Shown here one piece after another: positions 3,501 to 53,989 of a stretch of 64,000 nucleotides of DNA. The notes beneath the pieces were generated by a model. It worked only from the letters and a program-made list of their open reading frames with translations, had not been told where the DNA came from and did not search any database. The position numbers and the translations under genes are program-made. How positions within the stretch are numbered: position 1 is the first letter of the stretch; each line of letters begins with the position of its first letter. Origin of the DNA: an uncultured bacterium (GTDB lineage Bacteria > Bacillota_I > Bacilli_A > RF39 > UBA660); the NCBI GenBank assembly GCA_945935525.1, contig CAMERI010000002.1:188482-252481 (forward strand), in the 5' to 3' direction.

Positions 3501-3974
3501 TTAGTTCTCCCTTGGTAAAGCTGGTGTAACAGTGTTTCTATCTTGACGTTTATTACATTTAATATCTTTGTAGTAATCAACATCTGATGCTTCTGTTTTA
3601 TCTACTATAGTATAAGATTCTTTATTAAGTACTAAGTAATCTTCTTTTAATTCATATTCTCTATTTATTGAGTCATTACTTGATTCACACATACTATTAT
3701 CATACTTCTTAGTTTCAGTACTTAGTTTATTATCTTTAATAGTATATGTTCCCTTCTCTAGTTCACATGAATATTCACAGTTGGCTATTACTACTACTCC
3801 ATCTTTACTAAGAAAAATTTCTTTTTTAATAGACTCATTTTGATAAAGATAATATGAGTCTTCTTTCACTTCAAATTTTGGGGTATCATTTGTGTTATTT
3901 GGTTTATTTTCTTTTTTGCCACATCCTGTTAAAACTAATAGAATTATTAATATTAAACTTATATATTTTTTCAT
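3501..3974 (-). CDS. lipoprotein, unknown function
   Basis: Signal peptide with lipobox LTGC. Confidence 0.55.
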   Translation of the reverse strand: MKKYISLILIILLVLTGCGKKENKPNNTNDTPKFEVKEDSYYLYQNESIKKEIFLSKDGVVVIANCEYSCELEKGTYTIKDNKLSTETKKYDNSMCESSNDSINREYELKEDYLVLNKESYTIVDKTEASDVDYYKDIKCNKRQDRNTVTPALPREN

Positions 3975-3996
3975 ATCGTCACCTATTTTAATTATA

Positions 3997-4023
3997 ACAA
4001 AAAGAATTCCAAAAAGGAATTCT
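3997..4023 (-). terminator. Rho-independent terminator after parC
   Basis: Perfect inverted repeat AGAATTCC-aaaaa-GGAATTCT, followed on the minus strand by a T-run. Confidence 0.5.
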
Positions 4024-6589
4024 ATATTTTAAATTCTTCGAAGAAATCACTCATTGTTAGTTGACTCTTAGTTTCTTTCTTTTCTTTTTTAACTTCAGGA
4101 GTCTTTGTTTCTTCTTTTATTTCTTGTTTTTCTTCTGCCACATCTTTAATTTCTTCGTTATTTAATTTTATTTCTTTTAGTTTAGTAACTACGAATATGT
4201 CTTCTATATTCTTTTTAGTTATTGTGCTTCCAACACTTTGTTTATCCATTATATTTATATCACTTGATTTCATATAACCTATGTCTCCATCAAGTATACC
4301 AAATATTGTTTTTGAGTTTGTGTTGAATCCTTTGAATAAGTTATATGTTTTTGATTTAGGACTCTTTATGATAGATGAACCTTTTTTAGCTCTTGTTGTT
4401 TTTGGTATTTCATCTATTTTAACTCTTTTAGCAGTGTTTCTATCAGTGAACAATGTTACATATTCTTTAGAAGTGCTTACTACGAATGCACTAATTACTT
4501 CGTCTTTGCCACTTAAGTTAATAGATTTGACTCCACTTGTTCTAAGGCCTACTACTGGTATTTCACTAGTGTTATATTTTAATGCGTTGCCTTCTTTAGT
4601 TATAACAAGTGTTTCTTCACCATTGTTTTTATTTATAGATATTAACTCATCATTATCTTTTAGTTTGAACATTGTGATAGGTTTTGTGTATCTTGATACT
4701 TCAAAGTCTTTAAGTACCATTCTTTTTACCATACCAAGTTTAGTGAATGCTGTAATAATTGTATCATCGAATTTAGCTACTCCGATAGATTTAACTACCT
4801 TTTCTCCATCACTAACTTTAATATAATTTGATATATGAGTACCTATATCTTTATATTTTGCTTCTTGTATTTCTCTTACTGGTAAGAATAAATAATTACC
4901 TAAGTTTGTGAATAATAATACAGTATCTATATTATTAATCTTATAGAAGCCTTCAATATAATCATTTTCTCTTACTCCTGGATATTCATTGTTAGTCATA
5001 TTATATGATTTTAATGATACTTTCTTAACATATCCATTATTAGAGATACATACTATAAAGTCTTCTTTACTAATCATATCTAGTGTATCTATTTTGATTT
5101 CACTTACTTCATCTTTAATAGTTGTACGTCTTGGATCAGCAAATTCTTTCTTAATACTTCTTAGTTTATCTTTGATAACGCCCATTAATTTTTCTTCACT
5201 AGCAAGTATTTCTCTAAAGTAAGCTATTTCTTTTGTAAGAGCATCAAATTCATTTTTTAGTTCTGTTACATCAGTGTTAGTTAATTTATATAGTTGCATC
5301 ATTACGATAGCTTCTGCTTGTGCTTTAGTGAATTCATATTCATGCATTAAGTTTTCTATAGCATCACTTTTGTTTTTACTTTTACGAATAGTTTTAATTA
5401 CTTCATCTAGTATATCTAGTGCTTTTATGAAGCCTTCGATAATATGTATTTTCTTTAAATCTACATCTAGATCAAATTTAGTTCTTTTAGTTACTACTTC
5501 TTTATTGTGAACTATGAATGCATCTAACATTTCTAGGATACCTAGTGTTTTTGGTGTTCTATTAACGATAGCAACCATATTAAATGCATAGTTTGTTTGT
5601 AAGTCAGTATTTTTAAGTAAGTAGTTTATTATTAAATCTTTGTTAGCATCTTTCTTTAAATCTATTACTATTCTAAGTTCATCATTTTTATCAGATTCAT
5701 CACGTACTTCAACGATACCATCTATTTTCTTATCTAGTCTTATTTCTTCAATCTTACGAATTATATTGCACTTTAATGTATCGTATGGTATTTCTGTTAT
5801 TACGATTTGATCTTTACCTTTTACTGATTCGAATGAGTATCTTGCTTTTACTACTACTTTTCCTTTTCCTGTAGTGTATGCTTTTATAAGTGCGTCTTTT
5901 CCTTCGACTATACCTCCGGTTGGGAAGTCTGGACCTTTTACGATATCCATAATAGTATCTAGTCTACAGTTTGGACTATCTATTCTTTTAATAGTAGCAT
6001 CTATTACTTCACCTAAGTTATGTGGTGGAATGTTAGTTGCATATCCTGCGCTTATACCAGTTGAACCATTTACTAAAAGGTTTGGAAAGTATGCAGGAAG
6101 TACTGTTGGTTCATAGCTATAGTCATCGAATGTAAGAGCCATTTCTACTGAATCTTTTTCTATGTCTTCTAAAAGTATATTACTTATTTTAGCTAATCTT
6201 GCCTCAGTATAACGCATTGCGGCTGGTCCATCACCATCTATTGAACCATTGTTTCCTTGCATATCTACAAGTATTACTCTTTGTTTCCATTTTTGACTAA
6301 GTCTTACCATCGCATCGTATACTGATGTATCTCCGTGTGGATGGTAATTACCTATAACGTTACCTACAGTCTTTGCTGATTTTCTGGTTTCTTTGTCATA
6401 AGTATTTTTGTCTTTGTACATTGAATAAAGTATTCTTCTTTGTACTGGTTTTAGTCCATCACGAACATCTGGAAGAGCTCTATCTTGGATTATGTATTTA
6501 GCATATCTACCAAAACGTTCTCCCATTATTTCTTCAAGGGCAAAGTCATTTATCTTTTCTATAATTGTTGTTTCTTTTTCTTTAGCCAT
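4022..6589 (-). CDS. parC: DNA topoisomerase IV subunit A
   Basis: GyrA/ParC N-terminal domain with active-site region; AMVRLSQKWKQRVIL resembles the ParC signature (AMVRLSQDWK) rather than GyrA's AMVRMAQDF; sits directly downstream of the GyrB/ParE-type gene. Confidence 0.8.
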   Translation of the reverse strand: MAKEKETTIIEKINDFALEEIMGERFGRYAKYIIQDRALPDVRDGLKPVQRRILYSMYKDKNTYDKETRKSAKTVGNVIGNYHPHGDTSVYDAMVRLSQKWKQRVILVDMQGNNGSIDGDGPAAMRYTEARLAKISNILLEDIEKDSVEMALTFDDYSYEPTVLPAYFPNLLVNGSTGISAGYATNIPPHNLGEVIDATIKRIDSPNCRLDTIMDIVKGPDFPTGGIVEGKDALIKAYTTGKGKVVVKARYSFESVKGKDQIVITEIPYDTLKCNIIRKIEEIRLDKKIDGIVEVRDESDKNDELRIVIDLKKDANKDLIINYLLKNTDLQTNYAFNMVAIVNRTPKTLGILEMLDAFIVHNKEVVTKRTKFDLDVDLKKIHIIEGFIKALDILDEVIKTIRKSKNKSDAIENLMHEYEFTKAQAEAIVMMQLYKLTNTDVTELKNEFDALTKEIAYFREILASEEKLMGVIKDKLRSIKKEFADPRRTTIKDEVSEIKIDTLDMISKEDFIVCISNNGYVKKVSLKSYNMTNNEYPGVRENDYIEGFYKINNIDTVLLFTNLGNYLFLPVREIQEAKYKDIGTHISNYIKVSDGEKVVKSIGVAKFDDTIITAFTKLGMVKRMVLKDFEVSRYTKPITMFKLKDNDELISINKNNGEETLVITKEGNALKYNTSEIPVVGLRTSGVKSINLSGKDEVISAFVVSTSKEYVTLFTDRNTAKRVKIDEIPKTTRAKKGSSIIKSPKSKTYNLFKGFNTNSKTIFGILDGDIGYMKSSDINIMDKQSVGSTITKKNIEDIFVVTKLKEIKLNNEEIKDVAEEKQEIKEETKTPEVKKEKKETKSQLTMSDFFEEFKI

Positions 6590-13887: not shown

Positions 13888-13964
13888 GGGCCTGTAGCTC
13901 AGCTGGTTAGAGCGTTCGTCTGATAAGCGAAAGGTCGATGGTTCAAGTCCATTCAGGCCCACCA
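13888..13964 (+). tRNA. tRNA-Ile (anticodon GAT)
   Basis: Cloverleaf with 7-bp acceptor stem GGGCCTG/CAGGCCC, anticodon loop CTGATAA, encoded CCA. Confidence 0.9.
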
Positions 13965-13973
13965 TTAATAAAT

Positions 13974-14049
13974 GGCCCGTTGGTGAAACGGTTAACACAC
14001 ACGCCTTTCACGCGTGCATTTATGGGTTCAAATCCCGTACGGGTCACCA
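13974..14049 (+). tRNA. tRNA-Glu (anticodon TTC)
   Basis: Acceptor stem GGCCCGT/ACGGGTC, anticodon loop CTTTCAC, encoded CCA; close to Bacillus tRNA-Glu. Confidence 0.9.
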
Positions 14050-39270: not shown

Positions 39271-40458
39271 CTAAAAATTAAACATTAACCATTCTGGTTT
39301 ATATATCATTAGTATTCCAATTGTAATCATTATAAGTCCACCTATTAAGTGTGAATACTTTCCATATTTATTTGATATTACTTTTATCTCTAGTGTTTTC
39401 ATAGCAATTATAAATATTATAATATCATCTATCATAAAGAATAAAATATATATTAATGAATAAAGTATTTGTCCAAACTTGCTTACTTCATTTATTGTTA
39501 ATATTTGTGTGAACATTACAGGTAAGCCTAATGAGCAAAGAAGTTCTACGATATTAACTGAAGCTGCTAATAATATTATTCCTAAAAGTGCTAGTATGAA
39601 TGATTTTTCTTTAACAATTTTTTGAATTGATTTTATTATTTTCTTTCTATTTTTTGTATCTACTACTTCACATCCATCATCTTTTTTAAAGAAGAATGAG
39701 TTTACTTGAATTACACCAAATAAAACGGCTACGAATGCAATTGCAACTCTAATATATAGTATTTTATTTAAGAATACTGCTAGATTTAACCAAGATATTA
39801 GGAATAAGAAATATACTAGAGCTGATGATACTAAGAATGTTATGCCTAGAGTCCACATTCTTTTTCTATTTTTCATTCCAAGTAACATTGATATAAGAAA
39901 TAAAAGTATCCACATTGCACAAGGATTGAATCCATCAACTAAGCCAATCACAACTGCTGATAGACCTATTGAAACATCTTTTATTTTTTGTTTACCAAGT
40001 ATAGGTATTTTCACTTCTGATTCTTGATAATCTGTTTTTGTTTCTTCTTCGTTTTTATCTTCAACTATTCCAAGATAAATACCTACTTTATCTTTATAAT
40101 TTATATTTTTATAATATTCTACTGCATTTTTTATTCTTTCTGGAGTTATTTCTTCATCGAATCCTGAGATTACTGTTTCTCCAATTATCAAATATGGAAT
40201 TCCACTAGATGTATCATTTAATATGTCATGCACTTTTGAATATTTTTCTTGATTATCTTTGTTATACCACACTTCATATCTATGTATTTTTATGTAATCA
40301 TTTTTCTTCAAATAAGATTCGAACCATTTTTCCTCTTCTTTACAGTGAGGACATCCATCACCATAAAATAAATAAATATTTAAATCTTTTTCACTTCCAA
40401 ATACTAAGAATGGAATAAATAGAAGTAAAAATAATAATACTTTTAATGTCTTTTTCAT
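39271..40458 (-). CDS. thiol:disulfide interchange protein: extracytoplasmic thioredoxin-like domain fused to a CcdA/DsbD-type membrane domain
   Basis: Signal peptide; GCPHC active site; membrane domain contains the NPCAMW motif. Confidence 0.7.
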   Translation of the reverse strand: MKKTLKVLLFLLLFIPFLVFGSEKDLNIYLFYGDGCPHCKEEEKWFESYLKKNDYIKIHRYEVWYNKDNQEKYSKVHDILNDTSSGIPYLIIGETVISGFDEEITPERIKNAVEYYKNINYKDKVGIYLGIVEDKNEEETKTDYQESEVKIPILGKQKIKDVSIGLSAVVIGLVDGFNPCAMWILLFLISMLLGMKNRKRMWTLGITFLVSSALVYFLFLISWLNLAVFLNKILYIRVAIAFVAVLFGVIQVNSFFFKKDDGCEVVDTKNRKKIIKSIQKIVKEKSFILALLGIILLAASVNIVELLCSLGLPVMFTQILTINEVSKFGQILYSLIYILFFMIDDIIIFIIAMKTLEIKVISNKYGKYSHLIGGLIMITIGILMIYKPEWLMFNF

Positions 40459-40709
40459 AGTTCACCTTCTATAATCCTTATAAATTCTTCCTTTTTGTGT
40501 TCTCCACATAGTCTGGTTATTTCTTTGTCATTTTTGTAAAAGATAAATACTGGAAGAATTTTACCTACGTTAAATTTTTCTATATCATCAAAATCAAAGT
40601 CGTAGTCTTCATATTCTATATCTTCATATTCTTTTTTTAACTCATTTATTATCTTATTCATTATTATGCATGATGGACATCCTAGTGAGTTTATTTTTAC
40701 TATTTTCAT
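40455..40709 (-). CDS. small thioredoxin-family protein
   Basis: CPSC redox motif; 84 aa. Confidence 0.6.
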   Translation of the reverse strand: MKIVKINSLGCPSCIIMNKIINELKKEYEDIEYEDYDFDFDDIEKFNVGKILPVFIFYKNDKEITRLCGEHKKEEFIRIIEGEL

Positions 40710-40717
40710 AATTGCTC

Positions 40718-41470
40718 CTATTTTAATGATTTAGATTTTTGTATTTTGTATGTACATTTTACTATGAATTTCCTAGTGAATAGTCTATTTGCAAATACTC
40801 CTAGTTTTATAGTAAATCCTGGTATAATTATTAATTTATTTTTATTCATACACTTTAATGTATACTTTACAACATCTTTACTTTGTAGTGATTTTACTCC
40901 AAATTTTACGTGTGCTCTTTCATTAAAGCCAGTGTCAACTGGACCAGGACATAGGATATGGATTTTTACATTACTTTTATCTCTTCTTAATTCTTCATAT
41001 ATTCCCATGCTTAGATTATAAACATATGATTTGGTTGCATAGTATGTTGACATAAGTGGTCCAGGCTCAAATGCGGCAGAGGAAGCAACATTAAGTATTT
41101 CACCTTTATCTTTCTTAACAAAGTCTTGTAAGAATAGTTTAGTTAACATATGATAAGTAATAACATTTAAATCTATCATATTAAGTTCGTTATCTAAATC
41201 AGTATCAATAAATTTACCAAATGCTCCGAATCCTGCATTATTGATTAATAAATCTACTTTTCCTTTATACTTATTATACAATTTATAAACATTTTCTTTT
41301 ACACTTAGATCCATTACTTCGATTTCAACATTTGTTTTCAATTCTTTAGCAAGTTTTTCTAATTTATCTTTTGATCTTGCTACCAAAATTAAATCATAGC
41401 CTTCTTTTGAAAGTTCTTTTGCAAAATCTGCTCCTAGACCATTAGAAGCTCCTGTTATCAAAGCTTTCAT
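40718..41470 (-). CDS. short-chain dehydrogenase/reductase (SDR)
   Basis: TGASNGLG cofactor motif and a YxxxK catalytic region. Confidence 0.85.
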   Translation of the reverse strand: MKALITGASNGLGADFAKELSKEGYDLILVARSKDKLEKLAKELKTNVEIEVMDLSVKENVYKLYNKYKGKVDLLINNAGFGAFGKFIDTDLDNELNMIDLNVITYHMLTKLFLQDFVKKDKGEILNVASSAAFEPGPLMSTYYATKSYVYNLSMGIYEELRRDKSNVKIHILCPGPVDTGFNERAHVKFGVKSLQSKDVVKYTLKCMNKNKLIIIPGFTIKLGVFANRLFTRKFIVKCTYKIQKSKSLK

Positions 41471-41508: not shown

Positions 41509-41534
41509 AAAAAAAAGATTGTTGTTACAATCTT
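41509..41534 (-). terminator. Rho-independent terminator ending the vWA/kinase/PurA-like operon
   Basis: AAGATTGT-tgtt-ACAATCTT followed on the minus strand by TTTTTTTT. Confidence 0.55.
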
Positions 41535-42460
41535 CTTCCTTTGTTTGTATTTGGTTTTAATGATAAACTCATTCCTATATCTGTGTTAACATTTGCTATC
41601 TCAGTACTATTTGATAATTCTTGTAATGACTTTGTTACTCCTTCAATTCTAGTAGTAGTTTGCCCTCTTCCTTTCATATCAAGAGCATATACTTCTAAAT
41701 CTTGTTTTTGAATAGCTATAACTCCTAATATTAAATCTATAATTGCCTTTTCTTCTGGTATTCTAACTACATGCTCTGGAGGTAATACCTCTTTCCATGC
41801 ATCAGTAATATCACTTCTAAATTTATTTCCACAGTATCTATTTAGCATTACAAATACATTATCTTTAAATTTCTTATTTAATGCTTCAAATGGTTTATAT
41901 CCTTTTTCTGCTGGAATTCCTATACCTTCTGCTTGACTAAGATTTAAATCTTTATAAGGTGCTTCATCCGCTACAAAGAATACCATTGGATTTGCATCTT
42001 TTCTAAATTCTGTATTGTTTGCTAAGTAATGTGCCATTAATTCATATGATTCTTGTACTTGTCCTCCCCCAGCTCCTTCAAGAACCAACTTTTCTAAATT
42101 ACTATCTATTTCTAATCCTTTAGCAAAGTCATTTATTTGTATTGGATAATCATCTGTGTACGCGTCTCCAACTGCACAAATTGATATATCAAAATCTTTT
42201 AAATAACCTTTTTGTTCTAATTCTCCATAGAACATTGGAAATTTATCATATACTAATCTTGCAAAATTAATATTTGAACCTGTAACATCTAATACTATTA
42301 CAATTGGTGTTTTAGCATCACTTTTTATTATTTTTCCCTTTGGTAACATTTTACTATCTAGTGAAGTACTATTTAACTTGCTTGATGAATAATCGCTTGC
42401 TCCCCAACTATCATAACTACTTCCACTATAAACATCTCTATCATAACTATAACTTCCCAT
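41525..42460 (-). CDS. von Willebrand factor A (vWA) domain protein with a Ser/Tyr/Asp-rich N-terminal tail
   Basis: MIDAS-like VLDVTGS motif; N-terminus MGSYSYDRDVYSGSSYDSWGASDYSSS. Confidence 0.7.
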   Translation of the reverse strand: MGSYSYDRDVYSGSSYDSWGASDYSSSKLNSTSLDSKMLPKGKIIKSDAKTPIVIVLDVTGSNINFARLVYDKFPMFYGELEQKGYLKDFDISICAVGDAYTDDYPIQINDFAKGLEIDSNLEKLVLEGAGGGQVQESYELMAHYLANNTEFRKDANPMVFFVADEAPYKDLNLSQAEGIGIPAEKGYKPFEALNKKFKDNVFVMLNRYCGNKFRSDITDAWKEVLPPEHVVRIPEEKAIIDLILGVIAIQKQDLEVYALDMKGRGQTTTRIEGVTKSLQELSNSTEIANVNTDIGMSLSLKPNTNKGRRL

Positions 42461-42469
42461 ATAATCCTC

Positions 42470-43504
42470 CTAATTTACTTTTCTTTCTAGTGTTTTAAAT
42501 CTTTGATGACCATACACTTCATTTCTTATTTGTATTAGTTCGTTCCATAATGCCCACGCATCATTTTCTTTTTCACTTAGTAATTTTCTAATGAATGACC
42601 TTACTTTCACATCTACATTTACTGGCAAAGCTACCCTATCCATATCACCTCCTAATAAATCTATTGCTAACATACCAACTGCATATATATCCACATTTGG
42701 AATGACTTTTGCATCCTTACCGACATATTTTGGTGAGAATGTCTCATTTACTATTTTATATTTACTCGTTTCTTTATTAGCTTCTTCAATACAAAGTGAA
42801 TAATCAGTAACTGACACATTGTGAGTAGATGGGTCAATTAAAACATTTTCTCTTTTTATATTTCCATGAACGATTTTCTTAGAATGCAAATATCCAACTA
42901 CTGAAAGTAATCTTTCTAATATCCAGCAAATATGTTCACCGCTTAAATTTCCATAATATTTTTTTATTTCTTCTATAGTGAGTCCATCTTTTCTTTCTAC
43001 TATTACGGCATTTCTGCCATTTATTTTTGCTTTTGAAATTAATTTTGGTATTGATAAATGATCTAACTCACTTAGAATTTTTCCTTCTTCTTTTATCAAA
43101 TCATCATCTGATTCATCGCTTGCAATTTTCAATTCTATTAATTGTTCATCAAGTAGTCCCTCATAAACTGTTGCAACGTCTTCACATCTTGATACTTTAT
43201 AAAATTTATATTCTCTTCCTTTTAATTCAAATTCAAATAATGGAGATGCTCTTTTTAAAAGTTCTTTTTCATCTAATATTTGGTATGTTCCATCTTGAAT
43301 TTCTTTTTGTGCGAGAGTGTAGTACTCATTTAATATTTTTGTTGCTTTTTCTGCTAACGCTTTTTCTTCTTCTTTTGCTAAATCTGGATGACATATTTTT
43401 GCATAATTTCTATACACCTTTTTTATTTCATTTTCATTACTACCAAATATCTCAATTGGCCTTTTAGCATTTATAAGTAACTCTGTAATTTCTTTGATAG
43501 ACAT
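42470..43504 (-). CDS. J-domain protein fused to a protein-kinase-like domain (catalytic HRD replaced by HGN, so probably a pseudokinase)
   Basis: J-domain IKKVYRNYAKICHPD (HPD motif); kinase-like lobes with beta3 Lys (IELKIA), alphaC Glu, catalytic loop VHGNIKRENVLID, a TDY segment in place of DFG, and SPKYV. Confidence 0.6.
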   Translation of the reverse strand: MSIKEITELLINAKRPIEIFGSNENEIKKVYRNYAKICHPDLAKEEEKALAEKATKILNEYYTLAQKEIQDGTYQILDEKELLKRASPLFEFELKGREYKFYKVSRCEDVATVYEGLLDEQLIELKIASDESDDDLIKEEGKILSELDHLSIPKLISKAKINGRNAVIVERKDGLTIEEIKKYYGNLSGEHICWILERLLSVVGYLHSKKIVHGNIKRENVLIDPSTHNVSVTDYSLCIEEANKETSKYKIVNETFSPKYVGKDAKVIPNVDIYAVGMLAIDLLGGDMDRVALPVNVDVKVRSFIRKLLSEKENDAWALWNELIQIRNEVYGHQRFKTLERKVN

Positions 43505-44043
43505 TTTATATTTTCACCTCCATCTAATATGATGTCTGCATCTTTCTTTTGTGGTTCAATGTGTGTTCTATATATGCATAAAATTACATCATTAAAGTAT
43601 TTTCTTATTTCTTCTTCACTAATTCCATAACTTTTATCTCTTTTTATTCTTCTTTCAAGAGAAATGTTTTTATCTATTTCAATAAATACTTTTAATGTGT
43701 CTCTTAAATCTTTTAATGCATCTATCGTGTGTAATCCTTCAAATATTACTCTTCCATTTGTTCTAATAATTCTTGATTTGTCTACTCTTTTATTTGCTGA
43801 TAAATCATATGTTGGAATTATTACTTTTTTCTTTTCAATTAAAGTTTTTGAGTCATTTACAAACTCTTCAATATTAAAAGCATTTGGTAAGTCCATTAAG
43901 TATCCTTTTCTAGATAGTGGTATATCTTTTTTATCTTTAAAATACCAGTCTTCCTCAAAATGACTCATATTATATTCTTTCGATAAATAGTTACTTAATG
44001 TAGTTTTGCCTGAGCAAGTCATTCCAGAAATTATAATATTCAT
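43471..44043 (-). CDS. uridine/cytidine-kinase-like P-loop nucleoside kinase
   Basis: Walker A GMTCSGKTT; IPTYDLSANKR resembles the Udk VPIYDFSTHSR motif. Confidence 0.65.
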   Translation of the reverse strand: MNIIISGMTCSGKTTLSNYLSKEYNMSHFEEDWYFKDKKDIPLSRKGYLMDLPNAFNIEEFVNDSKTLIEKKKVIIPTYDLSANKRVDKSRIIRTNGRVIFEGLHTIDALKDLRDTLKVFIEIDKNISLERRIKRDKSYGISEEEIRKYFNDVILCIYRTHIEPQKKDADIILDGGENIKCLSKKLQSYL

Positions 44044-45437
44044 TTTAAAATCCTTTCTAATTTTTGATTTCTATTTGGCCCTACGCCTATTAAAGATATT
44101 TTTGAATTTATTAAGTATTCTATTAGTTCTATAAAATTTATACATTCTTCTGGTAAATCTTCTACTCTTTTAATATCACTTATATCTTGATTCCATCCAT
44201 CAATTGTTATATATAATGGGAGCGTTTTAGCTAAATATTTTCTTAAATCCGGACTATTTCTTTTTATATTTTTAATTATTATTTTATTTCCATCTTTGTA
44301 ATATTCGAATGTTTCTTTAAACTCTTCATCTATTTGTCCTATGTAAATGTATGAGTCACAAATCTTAATTTCTTTAAATGGTGACAATCTATCAAGTGCC
44401 GATAAGAAGAAATAATCATTTTTATTAATAGAGTTAGCATATCTTGTGAGTACTGCATCAAACCATCCATATCTTGGCCTTCCTTGATAATAACTTTCTG
44501 ATTGGTTTTCATCCTTTATTAATGCTTCAACTTTCTTATCATAAGTTGGAAGAACTCCCATACCATGTCTACTTGTTAATGCAGATATAGCACCTATCTT
44601 ATGAATATTAGTATTTAATTCGTTTGCTAAAACTATCCCATTTTGATTTGTTGTATTTAATAATGTTGTGTTTGGCCTTATACCATAATCTCTATCAATT
44701 AATAACCCCTGTGAGCCTTCAAATACAATATCACTGTCAGTGTGAAATGTTCTTATATCTTTTGTAACATTGATGAAACCACTTCTTAGTAAATTCTCAT
44801 AGCATCTAATTATGTATTCTCTATTTTTAGATTCAGTTAAGTGTGATATGTCATCAGTTCTAATGAGTCTGCTTATAAGTTCTTTATTTTGAGAACTCTT
44901 ATAAAATTTTTGAGCATAACCAAATAATTCTTTTAATTTTTCTTTGTATACTTCACTATTGAAGTCACTCATCAATAGTTTAATTCCTGTTTCTTCAAAT
45001 GTTCTTGTTACTTCACTTACACCACTTCCAACAGAACCCCTTCTATTATTCTTACTTTCAATTTCTCTTAAATTATCAATTAATTTGTGATAAGGTGTCA
45101 CGATAGGTACTTCACTATCTACAAATACTCTTTTTAATATTTCTTCTCTTGGTACTTTTGTTTTTTCACTTAAGAAATTACTTTCACTAATTATGTTAAA
45201 GAGATTTACCACTGTGTATTTCGATAGAAAAGTTCTAGTGTCTTCATTTAGAAACGCTGAACCCAGTTGACTAAATTTGTGTGTTAGACCATCATTGACA
45301 ACTGTATGACTTGCTTGACTTCCACCATTATATCTAACGTTTTCTTTTATATCTTTAGTACTTGCTAGATAATCAACTAAAGTCCCTTTTCCTTCGTCAC
45401 CAAATAATGTTCCAGATACTATATAACTATTATTCAT
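44040..45437 (-). CDS. divergent adenylosuccinate-synthetase (PurA)-family ligase
   Basis: PurA motifs GDEGKG(T), QASHT (PurA has NAGHT), GSVGSGVSE (PurA has TGRGIGP), ALDRLS (PurA has KLDVL) and a C-terminal IGVGPNRNQ. Confidence 0.75.
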   Translation of the reverse strand: MNNSYIVSGTLFGDEGKGTLVDYLASTKDIKENVRYNGGSQASHTVVNDGLTHKFSQLGSAFLNEDTRTFLSKYTVVNLFNIISESNFLSEKTKVPREEILKRVFVDSEVPIVTPYHKLIDNLREIESKNNRRGSVGSGVSEVTRTFEETGIKLLMSDFNSEVYKEKLKELFGYAQKFYKSSQNKELISRLIRTDDISHLTESKNREYIIRCYENLLRSGFINVTKDIRTFHTDSDIVFEGSQGLLIDRDYGIRPNTTLLNTTNQNGIVLANELNTNIHKIGAISALTSRHGMGVLPTYDKKVEALIKDENQSESYYQGRPRYGWFDAVLTRYANSINKNDYFFLSALDRLSPFKEIKICDSYIYIGQIDEEFKETFEYYKDGNKIIIKNIKRNSPDLRKYLAKTLPLYITIDGWNQDISDIKRVEDLPEECINFIELIEYLINSKISLIGVGPNRNQKLERILK

Positions 45438-46329
45438 ATAAGAAACTCCTCCATCCTTTTAATGCTTTTTCTAATTTAGGTCCTTGTATTTCATCTTGTA
45501 ACATAAATGTTTTATATCCATATAAATACATAAGTTCTAAATCTTCCATATCAGGTAATGAAATTTCGGACTCTTTATTTAACGATGAAAATAATCTCGA
45601 TGCACATATGGTTGATGGATATTTTTTTATTATTTCTTGTAATGCTTTTAAGACATTTATATCATCTTTACATTCGAGCCATAAATCATCTCTTGCTGCC
45701 ATAGGTTGTATTGCTATATTATTTGATAAAGCAAAGCGTAAACCTTTTAATGATTCTATTTTTGCAACTATTGTTGCATTTGTATTTAAAGAAAGTATTT
45801 CTACTAAATCATCAAATGATTCTAAAAATGATGCCATATAATTATTCATTCCTAATTCTTTTGATTCTTTTATGAATTCTTTATCAAGTTGAGTTAAGTA
45901 TCCTTCTATTATTAAACTTTTTGCTTTTACATTTACTGATTGTCCTTTTCCTACAGCTCTTTCAGGAGGTTCTTCTAAAATAATTTTATTTCCTTTTGTA
46001 TGCATAATATTTGATGTATTCCCACCTCTAAAAATTACTTTTGCTGGATATTCTATATCTATTTTGTGATTTAGTTCTATTGCTTCATAACTAGTATCTG
46101 CCCAACTATTAACTCTTAGTTGTCTTCCCTTTAAATCTATCCATATTTTTTTGTTAAATTTTTCTTCTAATGATTTTAATATTTCAATTATTTTCTTTTC
46201 CTCTAAAAGTTCATTCACTCCTGTATTAAATCTTACTTCACTAATGTATTCACTTGACATCATTTCTTCTACTGCCTTCTTGTTATGAATATGTGGAAGA
46301 GTTCCAATTAATTTTATATCCTTTTTCAT
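45430..46329 (-). CDS. pyruvate-kinase-like TIM-barrel protein lacking the PK C-terminal domain
   Basis: Collinear with the PK barrel motifs: KLIGTLP (TIGP-like), EVRFNTGV (RLNFSHG-like), IDLKGRQLRV (DTKGPEIR-like), AKIESLKGL (KIEN-like), MAARDDLWLEC (MVARGDLG-like). Confidence 0.55.
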   Translation of the reverse strand: MKKDIKLIGTLPHIHNKKAVEEMMSSEYISEVRFNTGVNELLEEKKIIEILKSLEEKFNKKIWIDLKGRQLRVNSWADTSYEAIELNHKIDIEYPAKVIFRGGNTSNIMHTKGNKIILEEPPERAVGKGQSVNVKAKSLIIEGYLTQLDKEFIKESKELGMNNYMASFLESFDDLVEILSLNTNATIVAKIESLKGLRFALSNNIAIQPMAARDDLWLECKDDINVLKALQEIIKKYPSTICASRLFSSLNKESEISLPDMEDLELMYLYGYKTFMLQDEIQGPKLEKALKGWRSFLYE

Positions 46330-46338
46330 ATTTATTCC

Positions 46339-46362
46339 TTTATGTGTATTTTTTACACTTTA
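46339..46362 (-). promoter_or_regulatory. putative NrtR-like operator (copy 2), 15-30 nt upstream of the PK-like gene's start codon
   Basis: TATGTGTATTTTTTACACTT is identical over 20 nt to the copy at 47078-47099; core palindrome GTGTA-n5-TACAC. Confidence 0.4.
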
Positions 46363-46382
46363 TATTGCTTTTTAAAAGCATT

Positions 46383-47057
46383 TTAAAATATGCTTTTCTT
46401 TGTTATTTTTGAATTGAATTTATATAACTTAGCAGGTTTTTTTCCTTTATAAGTTATTGTTTTATTTATATCTTCAATAAGCTTTAAACTTAACATTTTT
46501 TTTCTGAAATTTCTTCTATCAATTTCTTTATTTAATATTGACTCATATACATTGTGTAGTTCTGGTAAAGTAAATTCATAAGGAAATAATGATTTTAGAA
46601 TATCACTAGATATTATATCCTTTTTTAATTCATCAATTCCTCCTTTTAATATTTCATTATGGTCATATGCTAATTTTGGAACTTCATCTAGTGAAAACCA
46701 ATCTGAGTTTGAAGTCTTGTTTGTTTTTGTTATTAGTTCTGCTTTTTTTATGTCTATAACGCCTATAAATAGTATAGCTATCAATCTTTTTATTGGTGAC
46801 CTATCTAATTTATCATAGATGCCGCATTGTCTTAACTCAATATTATCTAAACCAGTTTTTTCTTTTAATTCTCTTTTTGCCCCATCAATTAGTAATTCAT
46901 CATTATATAGTCCACCACCAGGTAATGCCCAATAATCTTTAAATGGTTCATTCGTTCTTCTGATTAATAATACTTTTGTTACTCCCTTATCAATTGTAAA
47001 TATAGTACTTACTACATGAATACCAATGTTTTTATAAAGCGGATTTTTTAATTCCAT
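46383..47057 (-). CDS. NrtR-family regulator (NUDIX domain plus C-terminal winged-helix DNA-binding domain)
   Basis: Nudix box GGLYNDELLIDGAKRELKEKTGL; C-terminal FTLPELHNVYESILNKEIDRRNFRKKM...KPAKLYKF matches the NrtR wHTH pattern. Confidence 0.7.
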   Translation of the reverse strand: MELKNPLYKNIGIHVVSTIFTIDKGVTKVLLIRRTNEPFKDYWALPGGGLYNDELLIDGAKRELKEKTGLDNIELRQCGIYDKLDRSPIKRLIAILFIGVIDIKKAELITKTNKTSNSDWFSLDEVPKLAYDHNEILKGGIDELKKDIISSDILKSLFPYEFTLPELHNVYESILNKEIDRRNFRKKMLSLKLIEDINKTITYKGKKPAKLYKFNSKITKKSIF

Positions 47058-47075
47058 ATCATCACTTCCATTTTC

Positions 47076-47104
47076 ATTATATGTGTATTTTTTACACTTG
47101 TCAA
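47076..47104 (-). promoter_or_regulatory. consensus sigma-A promoter of the NrtR-like gene, with an operator palindrome in the spacer
   Basis: TTGACA, 17-nt spacer, TATAAT on the minus strand; the palindrome GTGTAtttttTACAC at 47083-47097 lies between -35 and -10. Confidence 0.5.
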
Positions 47105-47113
47105 TATATTTTA

Positions 47114-47149
47114 AGAAAAATAAAAAAGAAGTTACTATTTAGCAACTTC
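47114..47149 (-). terminator. Rho-independent terminator after rny
   Basis: GAAGTT...AACTTC hairpin followed on the minus strand by TTTTTTATTTTT. Confidence 0.5.
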
Positions 47150-48688
47150 TTCAGCTCTTGTTTCTCTAATTACAACAACTTTTATTGTGCCAGGATATTG
47201 CATTGTATCTTCAATCTTTTCTTTGATTTCCCTTGCTATTTTATAACTTGATAAGTCATCAATTTCATCTGGCTTAACCATAACACGTAATTCTCTTCCA
47301 GCTTGCATTGCAAATGTCTTTTCAACGCCTTCCATTGAGTTACCTATGCTTTCTAACTCTTCAAGTCTCTTAACATAGTTTTCTAAAGAATCATTTCTAG
47401 CACCTGGTCTTGAAGCACTTAATGCATCTGCAACTGCTACTAATTCAGAAATAACATATTCAGCTTTTTTATCTCCATGATGTGATTCAATTGCATTTAT
47501 TACAACTTTATCTTCTCCATGTTTCTTAGCAACATCTGCTCCAATTTCTACATGACTTCCTTCAACTTCAAAGTCAATTGCTTTTCCTATATCATGAAGT
47601 AAACCTGCTCTTTTAGCTAATTGAACATTTTCACCTAATTCACTTGCCATTAAACCAGCTAAGTGTGCAACCTCTTTACTATGAGCAAGTGCATCTTGTC
47701 CATAACTAGTTCTAAATGCTAATTTACCAATTAATTCAACTATCTCAGGAGCAACTTTTGATATACCAAGTTCAAATAATGCTTCTTCACCTTTTTCACG
47801 AATTATTTTTTTATAATCTTCACATACTTTATCATATAATTCTTCAATTCTTGCTGGGTGAATTCTTCCATCTTTGATAAGTGTTTCAAGAGTTACTTTT
47901 GCAATTTCTCTTCTTAGTGGGTCGAATGATGATAACACAATTACTTCTGGGGTATCATCAATTATTAAATCGACTCCGGTTACAGCTTCAATTGTTCTAA
48001 TATTTCTACCTTCCCTGCCAATGATTCTTCCTTTCATTTCATCATTTGGAAGTTCTACAGTACTAACTGTTTGTTCACTAGTAACATCACTAGAATATCT
48101 TTGCATACTAGATACAATTAATTCTTTTGCTTTTCTATCTGCTTCAAGTTTTGCTTCATCTTCACGTTCTTTTAAGTAGACTGAAATTTCTCTTCCCATT
48201 TCTTCTTCTACTTTTTTTAGTATAGTTTCTCTTGCTTTTTCCTTCGAAAAACCAGAGATTTTTTCTAAAAGAGCTATTTGCTCCTTTATTATACTCTCCA
48301 TTTTTGCATCTTTTTCTTGAATTTCTTTTTGTTGTGCCAATAAATCTTTATCTTTTTGGTCTAGGTTTTTTTCTCTTTCAGTTAATAATTCATCACGTTT
48401 ATCTAAACTCTTTTCGCGGTTATCAATTCTTTGATTTAGATCATTAAGTTCTTTTTTCTTTTCCTTAATTTCTGCATCAGTTTGATTTTTTAACTTGTAA
48501 CTTTCTTCTTTTAATTCTAAAATGCCATCTCTTTTTGCTTTTTCAGCTTCTTTTTTAGCATCTTGAATTAGTTTATCAGCTTCTTTTTGTGCAGCACTTA
48601 CTTTTAATTTGTTAATTATAATCATTATGAAAGCGCCTACAAGCAATCCAACTACTACAAGCAAAATGGAGATAATTACATCATTCAT
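47135..48688 (-). CDS. rny: ribonuclease Y
   Basis: N-terminal TM, coiled coil, KH domain and HD domain; 517 aa. Confidence 0.95.
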   Translation of the reverse strand: MNDVIISILLVVVGLLVGAFIMIIINKLKVSAAQKEADKLIQDAKKEAEKAKRDGILELKEESYKLKNQTDAEIKEKKKELNDLNQRIDNREKSLDKRDELLTEREKNLDQKDKDLLAQQKEIQEKDAKMESIIKEQIALLEKISGFSKEKARETILKKVEEEMGREISVYLKEREDEAKLEADRKAKELIVSSMQRYSSDVTSEQTVSTVELPNDEMKGRIIGREGRNIRTIEAVTGVDLIIDDTPEVIVLSSFDPLRREIAKVTLETLIKDGRIHPARIEELYDKVCEDYKKIIREKGEEALFELGISKVAPEIVELIGKLAFRTSYGQDALAHSKEVAHLAGLMASELGENVQLAKRAGLLHDIGKAIDFEVEGSHVEIGADVAKKHGEDKVVINAIESHHGDKKAEYVISELVAVADALSASRPGARNDSLENYVKRLEELESIGNSMEGVEKTFAMQAGRELRVMVKPDEIDDLSSYKIAREIKEKIEDTMQYPGTIKVVVIRETRAEEVAK

Positions 48689-52068: not shown

Positions 52069-52794
52069 ATGAATGATATATTTTCAGAACTAATATTCAA
52101 GTTTACTATTATAAAACGAAAAGGTTTTGTAAAATCATTATATTATGATAGTGGTGCAGCAGGAAAAATGTTTGAAACCCTGCTAAACAAAAAACTTGAC
52201 AATAAATGTTTGCCTGATTTTGAATCGATTGAAATTAAAACATTATCAAATTCTAACAAATATCCAATTACACTTTTTAGCTGTTTGCCTGTAAAAAATG
52301 GATATACACCAGGCAAAGTTATAGAATATTTATTAAATAATTATGGATATAATAAAGACATTGATTGTAAATGTTTAATGATAAATGTTAAAGATGGCAA
52401 AATTAAATACTGTAAAAATAAATTTGGATTCATGATTAAAGTTTCAAATAAATGGAAGAAAATTTACCTTTGTATTTTTTATAAGAATAAAATATTTGAT
52501 ACAAGCATTCATTGGAATTTTAATGAAATTCACAATATTTTTAATACAAAATTAAAACATTTAGTTTGTGTAAAATATATACAAAATATCACTCACAGTG
52601 ATAAAATGTTTTATTATTATAATATTAATTGCTATGTTCTTAAATCATTTGATGACGTTTTGTTTGCAATTAAAAAAGGTATTATTACAATTAATTTTAA
52701 CTTTTCTATTTCAAATGGAATTGTTAAATATCATGGGATTAATTTTGTTATATATGAAAACGACTTACCTTTCATTTATAAAAAAATTATGTAA
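52069..52794 (+). CDS. MutH/Sau3AI-family PD-(D/E)xK endonuclease (orphan; no methyltransferase partner in the window)
   Basis: GAAGKMFETLLN...LPDFESIEIKT matches the MutH/Sau3AI motifs (G..G.LE; D-x6-E-x-K); GGGAGGA RBS before the ATG at 52069. Confidence 0.55.
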   Translation: MNDIFSELIFKFTIIKRKGFVKSLYYDSGAAGKMFETLLNKKLDNKCLPDFESIEIKTLSNSNKYPITLFSCLPVKNGYTPGKVIEYLLNNYGYNKDIDCKCLMINVKDGKIKYCKNKFGFMIKVSNKWKKIYLCIFYKNKIFDTSIHWNFNEIHNIFNTKLKHLVCVKYIQNITHSDKMFYYYNINCYVLKSFDDVLFAIKKGIITINFNFSISNGIVKYHGINFVIYENDLPFIYKKIM

Positions 52795-52868: not shown

Positions 52869-52945
52869 TGGTCGGGAAGACAGGATTTGAACCTGCAACC
52901 CCTTGGTCCCAAACCAAATGCTCTACCAAGTTGAGCCACTTCCCG
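52869..52945 (-). tRNA. tRNA-Pro (TGG)
   Basis: Cloverleaf; anticodon loop TTTGGGA; encoded CCA. Confidence 0.85.
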
Positions 52946-52951
52946 ATCTAA

Positions 52952-53028
52952 TGGTGCGCCCAATAGGAGTCGAACCCATAACCTTTTGATCCGTAGTCAA
53001 ATGCTCTATCCAATTGAGCTATGAGCGC
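52952..53028 (-). tRNA. tRNA-Arg (ACG)
   Basis: Anticodon loop CTACGGA; acceptor stem GCGCTCA/TGGGCGC. Confidence 0.85.
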
Positions 53029-53095
53029 GTTTAAATTTCCCTCGGAATCGCTTTGAAATTTTCTGTCTTGCATTTGTATTATTAATTTAACAAAA

Positions 53096-53171
53096 TGGTG
53101 GCTTCAGTTGGAATCGAACCAACGACACCAAGATTTTCAGTCTTGTGCTCTGCCAACTGAGCTATGAAGCC
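53096..53171 (-). tRNA. tRNA-Phe (GAA)
   Basis: Anticodon loop CTGAAAA. Confidence 0.85.
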
Positions 53172-53174
53172 ATT

Positions 53175-53250
53175 TGGCGGTTCCGACGGGACTTGAACCC
53201 GCGATCCCTCGCGTGACAGGCGAGTGTGATAACCACTACACCACGGAACC
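53175..53250 (-). tRNA. tRNA-Asp (GTC)
   Basis: Anticodon loop CTGTCAC; discriminator G. Confidence 0.85.
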
Positions 53251-53253
53251 ATT

Positions 53254-53330
<77 letters not shown>

Positions 53331-53358
53331 ATATTTGAAATTCACTGTACTTATCATA

Positions 53359-53451
53359 TGGCGGAGGAAAAGGGATTCGAACCCCTGCGCCAATTTCTTG
53401 ACCTCCCGGTTTTCAAGACCGGTCCCTTCAACCAGACTTGGGTATTCCTCC
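53359..53451 (-). tRNA. tRNA-Ser (TGA)
   Basis: Long variable arm; anticodon loop CTTGAAA; discriminator G. Confidence 0.85.
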
Positions 53452-53466
53452 AATAATATTTAAAGT

Positions 53467-53555
53467 TGGTGCCCCAGATCGGACTTGAACCGATATGAGC
53501 TTTTACACTCGCAGGATTTTAAGTCCTGTGCGTCTACCTATTCCGCCACTGAGGC
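53467..53555 (-). tRNA. tRNA-Leu (TAA)
   Basis: Long variable arm; anticodon loop CTTAAAA; Leu-type D-arm. Confidence 0.85.
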
Positions 53556-53563
53556 ACATAAAT

Positions 53564-53639
53564 TGGTGTCTCGCTGGGGATTCGAACCCCAGACCCCTTG
53601 ATTAAAAGTCAAGTGCTCTACCGGCTGAGCTAGCGAGAC
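53564..53639 (-). tRNA. tRNA-Lys (TTT)
   Basis: Anticodon loop CTTTTAA. Confidence 0.85.
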
Positions 53640-53658
53640 GTTCTATATGATAAATTTT

Positions 53659-53734
53659 TGGTTGCCTCGGCTGGATTCGAACCAGCGGAATGCAAGAGTC
53701 AAAGTCTTGTGCCTTACCACTTGGCTACGAGGCA
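53659..53734 (-). tRNA. tRNA-Gln (TTG)
   Basis: Anticodon loop CTTTGAC; U1-A72 as usual for Gln. Confidence 0.85.
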
Positions 53735-53744
53735 AAATTACAAG

Positions 53745-53828
53745 TGGTGGAGAGAGGTGGATTCGAACCACCGAACCCGAAGGAACAGATTTACAGTCTG
53801 CCGCGTTTAGCCTCTTCGCTATCTCTCC
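53745..53828 (-). tRNA. tRNA-Tyr (GTA)
   Basis: Long variable arm; anticodon loop CTGTAAA. Confidence 0.85.
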
Positions 53829-53831
53829 AAG

Positions 53832-53907
<76 letters not shown>

Positions 53908-53912
53908 AATTA

Positions 53913-53989
53913 TGGTGGGCGATGAGAGACTCGAACTCCCGACCCCCTGCTTGTAAGGCAGATGCTCTAACCAACTGAGCTAATCGCCC
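53913..53989 (-). tRNA. tRNA-Val (TAC)
   Basis: Anticodon loop CTTACAA; acceptor stem GGGCGAT/ATCGCCC. Confidence 0.85.

Follow-up and report, generated by a model that had tools for sequence, protein, structure and literature searches.

An exact 20-mer, TATGTGTATTTTTTACACTT, occurs twice on the plus strand of the DNA analyzed here, a 64-kb window (64,000 nucleotides, about 27% G+C) from contig CAMERI010000002.1 of an uncultured member of the Bacilli_A. The two copies, at 46341-46360 and 47080-47099, lie on either side of a gene encoding an NrtR-like regulator (nrtR; 46383-47057, minus strand; 224 amino acids (aa)). All of the genes around the locus are on the minus strand, and nrtR is preceded by rny and followed by five genes, the first of which encodes a pyruvate-kinase-like (PK-like) protein. 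The copy upstream of nrtR is referred to as operator 1 (O1) and that between nrtR and the PK-like gene as operator 2 (O2). The repeat had been noticed in the initial annotation, where its coordinates (46339-46358 and 47078-47099) were placed about 2 nt off. A scan of the 64 kb bore out the inverted-repeat core described there, GTGTA-N5-TACAC, which is found in perfect form only in the two 20-mer copies. When the window is dinucleotide-shuffled, a mean of 0.13 matches to the 20-mer is obtained, with up to 3 mismatches tolerated. The single core match with 1 mismatch, at 52568-52582, belongs to an unrelated stretch within an MvaI/BcnI-type restriction endonuclease gene (approximately 52069-52794, plus strand, a position transferred from 3535-4260 of locus L001), and is probably a chance occurrence.

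O1 is embedded within the promoter of the regulator, between the -35 and -10 elements, as had been proposed. This sigma-70 promoter (47076-47104, minus strand) comprises a -35 TTGACA (47104-47099), a 17-nt spacer and a -10 TATAAT (47081-47076), and is the sole 12/12 match between positions 40000 and 49000. Read on the minus strand, it takes the form TTGACA-AGTGTAAAAAATACACA-TATAAT, in which the core palindrome of O1 (47083-47097) fills the spacer and the full 20-mer (47080-47099) overlaps the final base of the -35 together with the initial two bases of the -10. Upstream lies rny, encoding RNase Y (47135-48688, minus strand), with an intrinsic terminator (47125-47152, minus strand) that was identified in a terminator scan as a 12-pair stem followed by a T-run, and which insulates the nrtR promoter against transcription from upstream.

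O2 (46341-46360, core 46344-46358) begins 23 nt past the nrtR stop codon. It spans 12-31 nt before the ATG of the PK-like gene (46329), where the initial annotation had the placement right and the distance slightly narrower, at 15-30 nt, and it touches the ribosome-binding site (RBS) AAGGA (46336-46340). A TATAAA hexamer abuts the site. Between nrtR and O2, and overlapping the nrtR stop codon, is a hairpin of the form AAAAGCAU-loop-AUGCUUUU (46374-46397, minus strand), flanked by an A-tract and a U-tract, with a predicted folding energy of -7.0 kcal/mol; the 91-nt intergenic region as a whole folds at -10.9 kcal/mol (z = -3.6). A hairpin is found at the equivalent site in all 54 distinct related regions (mean z = -3.6, with z < -2 in 44 of them), built from 28 different stem arms, and loci that lack nrtR likewise keep it in their short leaders. 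Its form suggests a weak intrinsic terminator, or an attenuator, separating nrtR from the genes that follow, which we call the cargo.

Conservation of the two sites and the protein that may read them

The distribution of the motif was followed outward from the PK-like protein, which has 442 homologs. With one genome taken per species, these gave a set of 80 loci for the five-gene module, in which gene order was mapped by tblastn. In the Bacilli-clade loci (L010-L019, L058, L085), whose PK-like proteins are 50-72% identical to that of the window, the motif is present at both equivalent places. O1 conforms to the pattern TTGACA-aGYGTAnnnnnTACRCa-TATAAT, within the promoter, and in 11 of the 12 loci O2, as GYGTA-N5-TACRC, is placed at -26 to -31 relative to the ATG of the PK-like gene. 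The other 68 module loci, which amount to about 0.7 Mb from other phyla, contain merely 2 stray matches. In L019, nrtR lies downstream and has its own operator-bearing promoter. One of the Bacilli-clade loci, L011, harbors an extra open reading frame of around 140 aa with Cys-x2-Cys pairs (5575-6000) between O2 and the PK-like gene. In Clostridia metagenome-assembled genomes (L020-L034), the five-gene module is found with neither an NrtR gene nor GYGTA-N5-TACRC within 6 kb, and must be controlled by a different regulator there.

Orthologs of the NrtR-like protein with 58-73% identity are numerous. When metagenome contigs were scanned with the promoter-plus-O1 pattern alone (TTGACANGYGTN6TACRCNTATAAT), at least 120 matches were obtained, around 80 of which directly precede an NrtR ortholog (49-74% identity). 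Overall, O1 is kept at the equivalent position in L010-L019, L058, L085 and L090-L216. O2 is similarly constant, since it is found 22-40 nt past the nrtR stop and a few nt before the next RBS in 52 of 59 distinct nrtR 3' regions, irrespective of the gene that follows. Across 1.10 Mb of related loci, the motif was observed 218 times against an expectation of 1.4, with 119 copies embedded in promoters, 79 directly 5' of an RBS, and 20 elsewhere, nearly all of the last being O2-like or extra sites beside the promoter. It had been suggested that an operator role would be undermined if the motif were common away from promoters; in this related DNA, 198 of the 218 copies occupy one of the two operator positions. 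A third copy lies directly upstream of the -35 in L102 (at about 1124) and L142 (at about 11062), which suggests three dimers around the promoter. The promoter-operator pattern was not found in any of the 2.9 million viral contigs of IMG/VR.

The protein encoded between the sites has an N-terminal Nudix-like domain and a C-terminal NrtR winged-helix domain, and the earlier assignment as NrtR-like is upheld by matches to Pfam PF21906 NrtR_WHD (1.6e-21, residues 157-214) and PF00293 NUDIX (5.8e-16, residues 18-136). It scores 133 bits against the NCBIfam NtrR model, under the equivalog cut-off of 400. Its closest relative of known structure is the regulator BtAraR of Bacteroides thetaiotaomicron (PDB 5bs6, 5.9e-36), followed by the NrtR of Shewanella oneidensis, SoNrtR (3gz5, 1.4e-16). 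In most cases the NrtR motif is a palindrome of 21 bp built around the core GT-N7-AC, and binding of NrtR to DNA is suppressed by ADP-ribose in vitro (Rodionov 2008, PMC2330246). The GTGTA-N5-TACAC of the window includes this family core.

A more precise correspondence is provided by the structure of BtAraR with its DNA, in which the operator GCAAAAGTGTTACTTTTACACCCATGC is a GTGT-N7-ACAC palindrome (Chang et al. 2015, PMC4666351). The GTGT half-site is read by Lys179, Arg180 (which intercalates), Asn181 and Lys184 of the recognition helix DKRNFRK, and is also defined by Lys204 and Arg205 of the wing (PMC4666351). At the aligned positions, the window protein has the recognition helix DRRNFRK (residues 180-186) and a basic wing, GKK; of 66 distinct orthologs, 65 have this same helix. 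By this comparison with the crystal structure, the protein is predicted to read DNA as BtAraR does. It is nevertheless not an AraR ortholog, because its pocket (N36, K67) and its regulon differ; the window gene list and Pfam reveal no arabinose genes at the nrtR locus. More distant NrtR-like proteins, encoded beside the same five-gene module, from a bacterium of the candidate phyla radiation (CPR; L049) and from archaea (L065, L077) have full NUDIX and NrtR_WHD domains and the helix DKRNFRK, and in all three loci GTGT-N7-ACAC is found directly upstream of nrtR or of the first gene in the cluster. Across Bacteroides AraR and the regulators of gut Bacilli, CPR bacteria and archaea, the helix D[KR]RNFRK appears to pair with GTGT-N7-ACAC.

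The Nudix-like domain offers some indication of the ligand. Residue numbers of the window protein and BtAraR coincide over 17-110 of their alignment, so that their pockets can be compared directly. Asn43 and Lys76 of SoNrtR bind the alpha-phosphate, and the space that the ADP phosphates take up in that protein is occupied in BtAraR by Phe36 and Leu67 (PMC4666351). The pocket of the window protein is lined by Arg34, Asn36, Lys67, Arg86 and His133, which are invariant or nearly so across the clade (66 orthologs) and which match the phosphate and ribose contacts of SoNrtR. This set of residues favors a phosphorylated, nucleotide-type ligand over a neutral sugar. From these residues and from the genomic context that links the system to nicotinamide adenine dinucleotide (NAD), described below, the ligand is probably a phosphorylated NAD derivative, with ADP-ribose the favored candidate. 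The Nudix signature itself, of which the family form is GX5EX7REUXEEXGU and which is typically, though not universally, impaired in these regulators, reads GGLYNDE-LLIDGAK-RELKEK-TGL in the window, with only the second Glu of the EE pair changed, to Lys, as is the case in all 66 orthologs.

Mode of action and alternative explanations

The two 20-mers are very probably DNA binding sites for the NrtR-family repressor that is encoded between them. The explanation that we consider best, and highly likely as a whole, is that O1 and O2 would each bind an NrtR dimer, with O1 serving in autoregulation, O2 acting as a roadblock or cooperatively, and release being brought about by an ADP-ribose-type ligand. 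Binding, repression, the role as a roadblock and the nature of the ligand are here inferred from comparative and structural-homology evidence. A dimer seated on O1, within the 17-bp spacer, would exclude RNA polymerase, such that occupancy would result in negative autoregulation and the shut-off of everything transcribed from the nrtR promoter. Transcripts from this promoter would meet the weak, A/U-rich terminator hairpin at the nrtR stop, and the cargo would be transcribed by read-through across it. O2 would most likely be a roadblock, or else a second operator acting cooperatively, and keep read-through out of the five-gene module. An NAD-derived ligand in the Nudix-like domain would then release the repressor from both sites, allowing nrtR and the module to be induced together. 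An autoregulatory operator combined with a roadblock or second operator had already been put forward in the initial annotation, and is favored by the conserved two-site layout and by the lack of a conserved promoter before O2. The ADP-ribose-like ligand proposed there agrees with the pocket residues and with the NAD context of the regulon.

Several observations weigh against this scheme. A clear T-run follows the hairpin in only 24 of the 54 related regions. The hairpin is nonetheless terminator-like and, were it efficient, the cargo would need a promoter of its own, none of which was found. O2 keeps a near-constant distance to the RBS and can form an RNA hairpin, making an additional role at the RNA level possible. 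Both operators are retained in L010 and L012-L015 with no nrtR within 6 kb, and these pairs would require a regulator that acts in trans. With respect to the ligand, Arg98, an ADP-ribose contact in SoNrtR, is aligned with Ile89. The RELKEK sequence keeps most of the catalytic residues of the Nudix box, so the protein might hydrolyze its ligand, and its effector could be another NAD-derived nucleotide.

The absence of a conserved promoter before O2 is what argues for read-through from the nrtR promoter, and it also bears on the most durable of the alternatives, in which O2 overlaps a separate, weak, internal promoter of the PK-like operon and NrtR represses two promoters independently. A promoter in this place would be useful, given the terminator-like hairpin that precedes O2 in all 54 related regions; the TATAAA hexamer abutting O2 in the window could be taken for part of one, and in nrtR-less loci of the L103 type O2 lies 3 nt after a -10, over the transcription start. 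Yet a promoter scan gave no sigma-70 match of at least 9/12 between 46330 and 46400. Over the 54 regions, the best -35/-10 score before O2 is at the shuffled level (7.13/12 versus 7.08), none of these candidates is conserved, and a score of 9/12 is reached in 7% of regions against 12% of shuffles. The A/T-rich bases beside O2 are explained as the flanks of a 19-21-bp palindrome. Two independently repressed promoters are consequently judged unlikely.

A further possibility is that the second copy acts as an RNA hairpin, GUGUA-N5-UACAC, that tunes translation or mRNA stability, with the promoter copy being unrelated or secondary. O2 is indeed transcribed, lies at a near-fixed distance to the RBS and is predicted to fold into a 5-bp hairpin (-3.9 kcal/mol, z = -4.2), and paired changes to GCGTA..TACGC occur 9 times in site 2. 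Against this, the same sequence is found in around 119 cases in a promoter spacer that is not transcribed, and the pair-breaking C·A combination (GCGTA..TACAC) occurs in 6 of 71 distinct O2 sites as well as in 9 of 92 O1 sites. Moreover, the closest homolog of known structure was crystallized on an operator of this same motif, and a scan of the whole window with Rfam returned only tRNAs, with no match at the nrtR locus. An RNA element as the principal function is accordingly very unlikely.

It is extremely unlikely that another transcription factor binds the motif and that the NrtR-like protein is an enzyme or a regulator of something else, even if its nearly intact Nudix box and the loci with both operators but no nearby nrtR (L010, L012-L015) would suit such an arrangement. 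The nrtR gene directly follows around 80 of the at least 120 promoter matches, the recognition helix is invariant where the operators are conserved, the half-site and spacing match the contacts made by BtAraR, and the distant NrtR-like genes of CPR bacteria and archaea also have GTGT-N7-ACAC upstream. Finally, that the two copies are a functionless product of chance or recent duplication in A/T-rich DNA can be given practically no weight. A/T-rich repeats are indeed common at about 27% G+C, and 1 of 100 shuffles reached 2 loose matches, but the conservation is position-specific and is seen in dozens of species as well as at no fewer than 120 metagenome loci (218 copies against 1.4 expected). 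The idea that the repeat is a target-site duplication around an inserted nrtR was also rejected, as loci without nrtR retain both sites.

The downstream module and the reuse of the cassette

The initial annotation had described five genes downstream of the regulator, in agreement with the gene list and Pfam; all are on the minus strand and are tightly packed, overlapping or nearly abutting. The first (45430-46329) encodes a truncated, PK-like TIM barrel of 299 aa (Pfam PK barrel, 1.1e-8), which keeps the active-site motifs of pyruvate kinase without its lid or C-terminal domain and whose profile matches pyruvate kinases in the PDB at 9e-14. The second (44040-45437) encodes a divergent paralogue of adenylosuccinate synthetase (PurA-like; 465 aa; Pfam Adenylsucc_synt, 4e-75), scoring 210 bits against the NCBIfam PurA equivalog, for which the cut-off is 402. 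Aligned with E. coli PurA, the protein retains both the GDEGKG P-loop and the region of the catalytic His, whereas the stretches that bind Asp and the IMP phosphate diverge. The third (43471-44043) is a nucleoside kinase of the uridine kinase family (Udk-like; 190 aa; Pfam PRK, 5e-17). Its assignment as a nicotinamide riboside kinase was considered and rejected as speculation, as uridine kinases in the PDB match far better (1e-17) than NRK1, which matches at just 4e-5 and in the P-loop only.

The fourth gene (42470-43504) specifies a protein of 344 aa that combines a J-domain with a Ser/Thr protein kinase (J-kinase; Pfam Pkinase 1.9e-18, DnaJ 1.1e-6), and the HPD motif of the J-domain is seen as ICHPDL in the translation. 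The fifth (41525-42460) encodes a protein of 311 aa with no sequence match in Pfam or the PDB, profile search included. Its AlphaFold2 model, built on an alignment of 43 homologs (mean pLDDT 82.9), matches integrin beta-I and von Willebrand A (vWA) domains (E of about 1e-5, probability 1.0), giving a predicted vWA fold, in which the invariant, MIDAS-like DxTGS motif would fit a metal-ion-dependent adhesion site (MIDAS). Residues 1-20 of this protein form a conserved peptide, GxYSYDRDVY, that is modeled with low confidence and in which Tyr6, Asp7, Arg8 and Tyr11 are invariant in close relatives; it may represent a docking or phosphorylation site for the neighboring kinase.

The gene order PK-like, PurA-like, Udk-like, J-kinase and vWA is found in uncultured Bacilli and Clostridia. 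A core of kinase, vWA and PK-like genes, often then followed by the PurA-like gene, occurs in CPR bacteria, DPANN archaea, Planctomycetota, Myxococcota and Chloroflexota. Two IMG/VR contigs, L217 (244 kb) and L218 (139 kb), contain the vWA, PK-like and PurA-like genes, with the kinase also present in L218. PADLOC-DB v2 returned generic kinase-domain matches only (PD-T4-6, MkoA, PglW) and no defined defense system, and gave no match to the PK-like, PurA-like or vWA proteins. Literature searches on the module and on its NadE and NMNAT neighborhoods found no description of it, and a paper on NARP3 proved to be unrelated to the five-gene module.

The neighbors of the module point toward NAD. A Pfam census of 106 co-directional neighbors in loci L035-L089 was led by CTP_transf_like (NMNAT-like; 15), NAD_synthase (NadE; 13), CN_hydrolase (11) and ADP_ribosyl_GH (4), followed by NadA (3), isochorismatase (PncA-like; 3), NAPRTase (2), NUDIX (2) and NAD_kinase (2). 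Two loci illustrate the association: L049 contains, in this order, genes for NrtR, a PncA-like member of the isochorismatase family, the J-kinase, vWA, PK-like and PurA-like proteins and a glutamine-dependent NadE, and L065 contains, again in order, those for an NMNAT-like protein, the kinase, vWA and PK-like proteins, an ADP-ribosylglycohydrolase, NAD kinase and NrtR. As NAD genes neighbor the module in several phyla, it appears to be linked to NAD or ADP-ribose physiology, which fits with control by NrtR. For the regulon, too, it is gene context that suggests the link to NAD.

The consensus promoter with O1, nrtR, the hairpin, O2 and the RBS together make up a cassette that recurs before many different cargo genes. 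In L090-L092, L095 and L096, an nrtR with 63-65% identity has the same O1-containing promoter, 3' hairpin and O2 before the RBS, and is followed by genes for a His-phosphatase and a NadR-like (AAA_28) protein, a cargo of classical NAD salvage. Other copies of the cassette precede a NadR-like gene with or without the His-phosphatase, the PK-like module, several families without a Pfam match, and proteins of 172-191 aa that have an N-terminal, HAD-like DxDGV motif and again no Pfam match. CYTH-type cargo is also found, as an HD-plus-CYTH fusion of 674 aa after nrtR (L155) and as a stand-alone CYTH protein of 217 aa (L129); these are domains of the phosphohydrolase type, for which nucleotides or polyphosphates may be the substrates.

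A minimal version of the switch, with neither nrtR nor the hairpin, is present in L103, L120, L124, L133, L136, L138, L154, L183 and L206. Here, O1 again occupies the promoter spacer, O2 starts 3 nt beyond the -10, the two centers are separated by 26 bp, and the RBS comes directly next. The cargo is a protein of 214 aa with no significant Pfam match, containing a motif, Y-x-Y-x-(Y/C)-x-EY, that is common to cargo proteins of L158, L129 and L167.

The interval from rny to a set of genes encoding an SDR protein, a thioredoxin and a membrane protein of 395 aa (the window flanks, 47135-48688 and 39271-41470) resembles a hotspot. In L146, L152, L170 and L216, the flanks and the nrtR cassette are kept and the cargo between nrtR and the SDR gene is different: L152 has none, and the others have two or three proteins without a match among the reference proteins. 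Elsewhere in the window, the MvaI/BcnI-type endonuclease gene adjoins a cluster of 12 tRNA genes (52872-53989, minus strand), which accounts for the local rise in G+C to 0.36 at 52-54 kb. Two more tRNA genes lie together at 13888-14046 (plus strand).

Relation to known systems and significance

The regulator-operator pair is an ordinary NrtR-type switch, and the motif in itself is unsurprising. With S. oneidensis NrtR and Synechocystis Slr1690 (PMC2330246) it shares the combination of Nudix-like and winged-helix domains, the palindromic GT-N7-AC operator, and the location of operators at the promoters of nrtR and co-regulated operons, where they are conserved in related genomes. The two-site layout is the same as that predicted for C. 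acetobutylicum, '#nrtR-pncA-#pncB'. Equivalents of SoNrtR Arg41, Asn43 and Lys76 are present in the window protein, which differs in that the sequence match is only 1.4e-16 and Arg98 is not kept. The regulated genes of the window are not known NAD enzymes and form an uncharacterized five-gene module.

BtAraR (BT0354; 5bs6/5dd4; PMC4666351) shares the GTGT-N7-ACAC operator, the D-K/R-R-N-F-R-K helix and the basic wing, and the tandem sites of the Bacteroides ara promoters, 3 bp apart, are similar to the L103-type arrangement with its centers 26 bp apart. However, BtAraR senses L-arabinose, using R34, R86 and H131, and its phosphate site is taken up by F36 and L67; in the window protein these two positions are N36 and K67, which resembles SoNrtR. 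BtAraR, moreover, belongs to the Bacteroidetes and to arabinose utilization, and the window to a Firmicute with another regulon.

Roadblock operators are known in Firmicutes, where CcpA, CodY and PurR sites are found inside operons. Such an operator lies downstream of the promoter, within the transcription unit and before the regulated genes, as does O2. Unlike these, O2 is a second copy of the promoter operator and is coupled with a weak terminator, and its role as a roadblock is a predicted one.

A wider parallel is found in the ADP-ribosylglycohydrolase-centered operons, with Nudix-HTH or WYL repressors, that were predicted by Iyer, Burroughs, Anantharaman and Aravind (2022; PMC9503650, section 3.8). 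Their core is an ADP-ribosylglycohydrolase gene with no ADP-ribosyltransferase coupled to it. They likewise have a negative Nudix-HTH regulator predicted to sense ADP-ribose, and a cargo that varies between close relatives, with vWA proteins and phosphatases of the HAD or HD type among it (PMC9503650). Archaeal versions of the window module adjoin ADP-ribosylglycohydrolase genes, as in those operons. The window operon itself is without a Pfam match to ADP_ribosyl_GH, and the domain is found beside the module in 4 distant loci. The neighbors of the module are mostly NAD-biosynthesis enzymes, in contrast to the nucleases of the predicted operons, and pyruvate kinase, adenylosuccinate synthetase and uridine kinase are not mentioned in PMC9503650.

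It is quite possible, although we would stop short of calling it probable, that the cassette is a portable switch responsive to ADP-ribose or another NAD metabolite, with interchangeable cargo at the rny-SDR hotspot in uncultured gut Bacilli, and that the module constitutes a pathway or stress response, so far undescribed, that is tied to NAD or ADP-ribose. The recognition code, in which D[KR]RNFRK is paired with GTGT-N7-ACAC, allows regulons to be predicted across a large, uncultured portion of the NrtR family, and the compact two-operator cassette is reused before many different, mostly unannotated cargo genes. The core of the module spans Firmicutes, CPR bacteria, DPANN archaea and Planctomycetota, and is also present on two large viral contigs of IMG/VR. 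The switch would place this widespread five-gene module within NAD or ADP-ribose physiology, and offers a likely inducer and a reporter as a starting point for its study.

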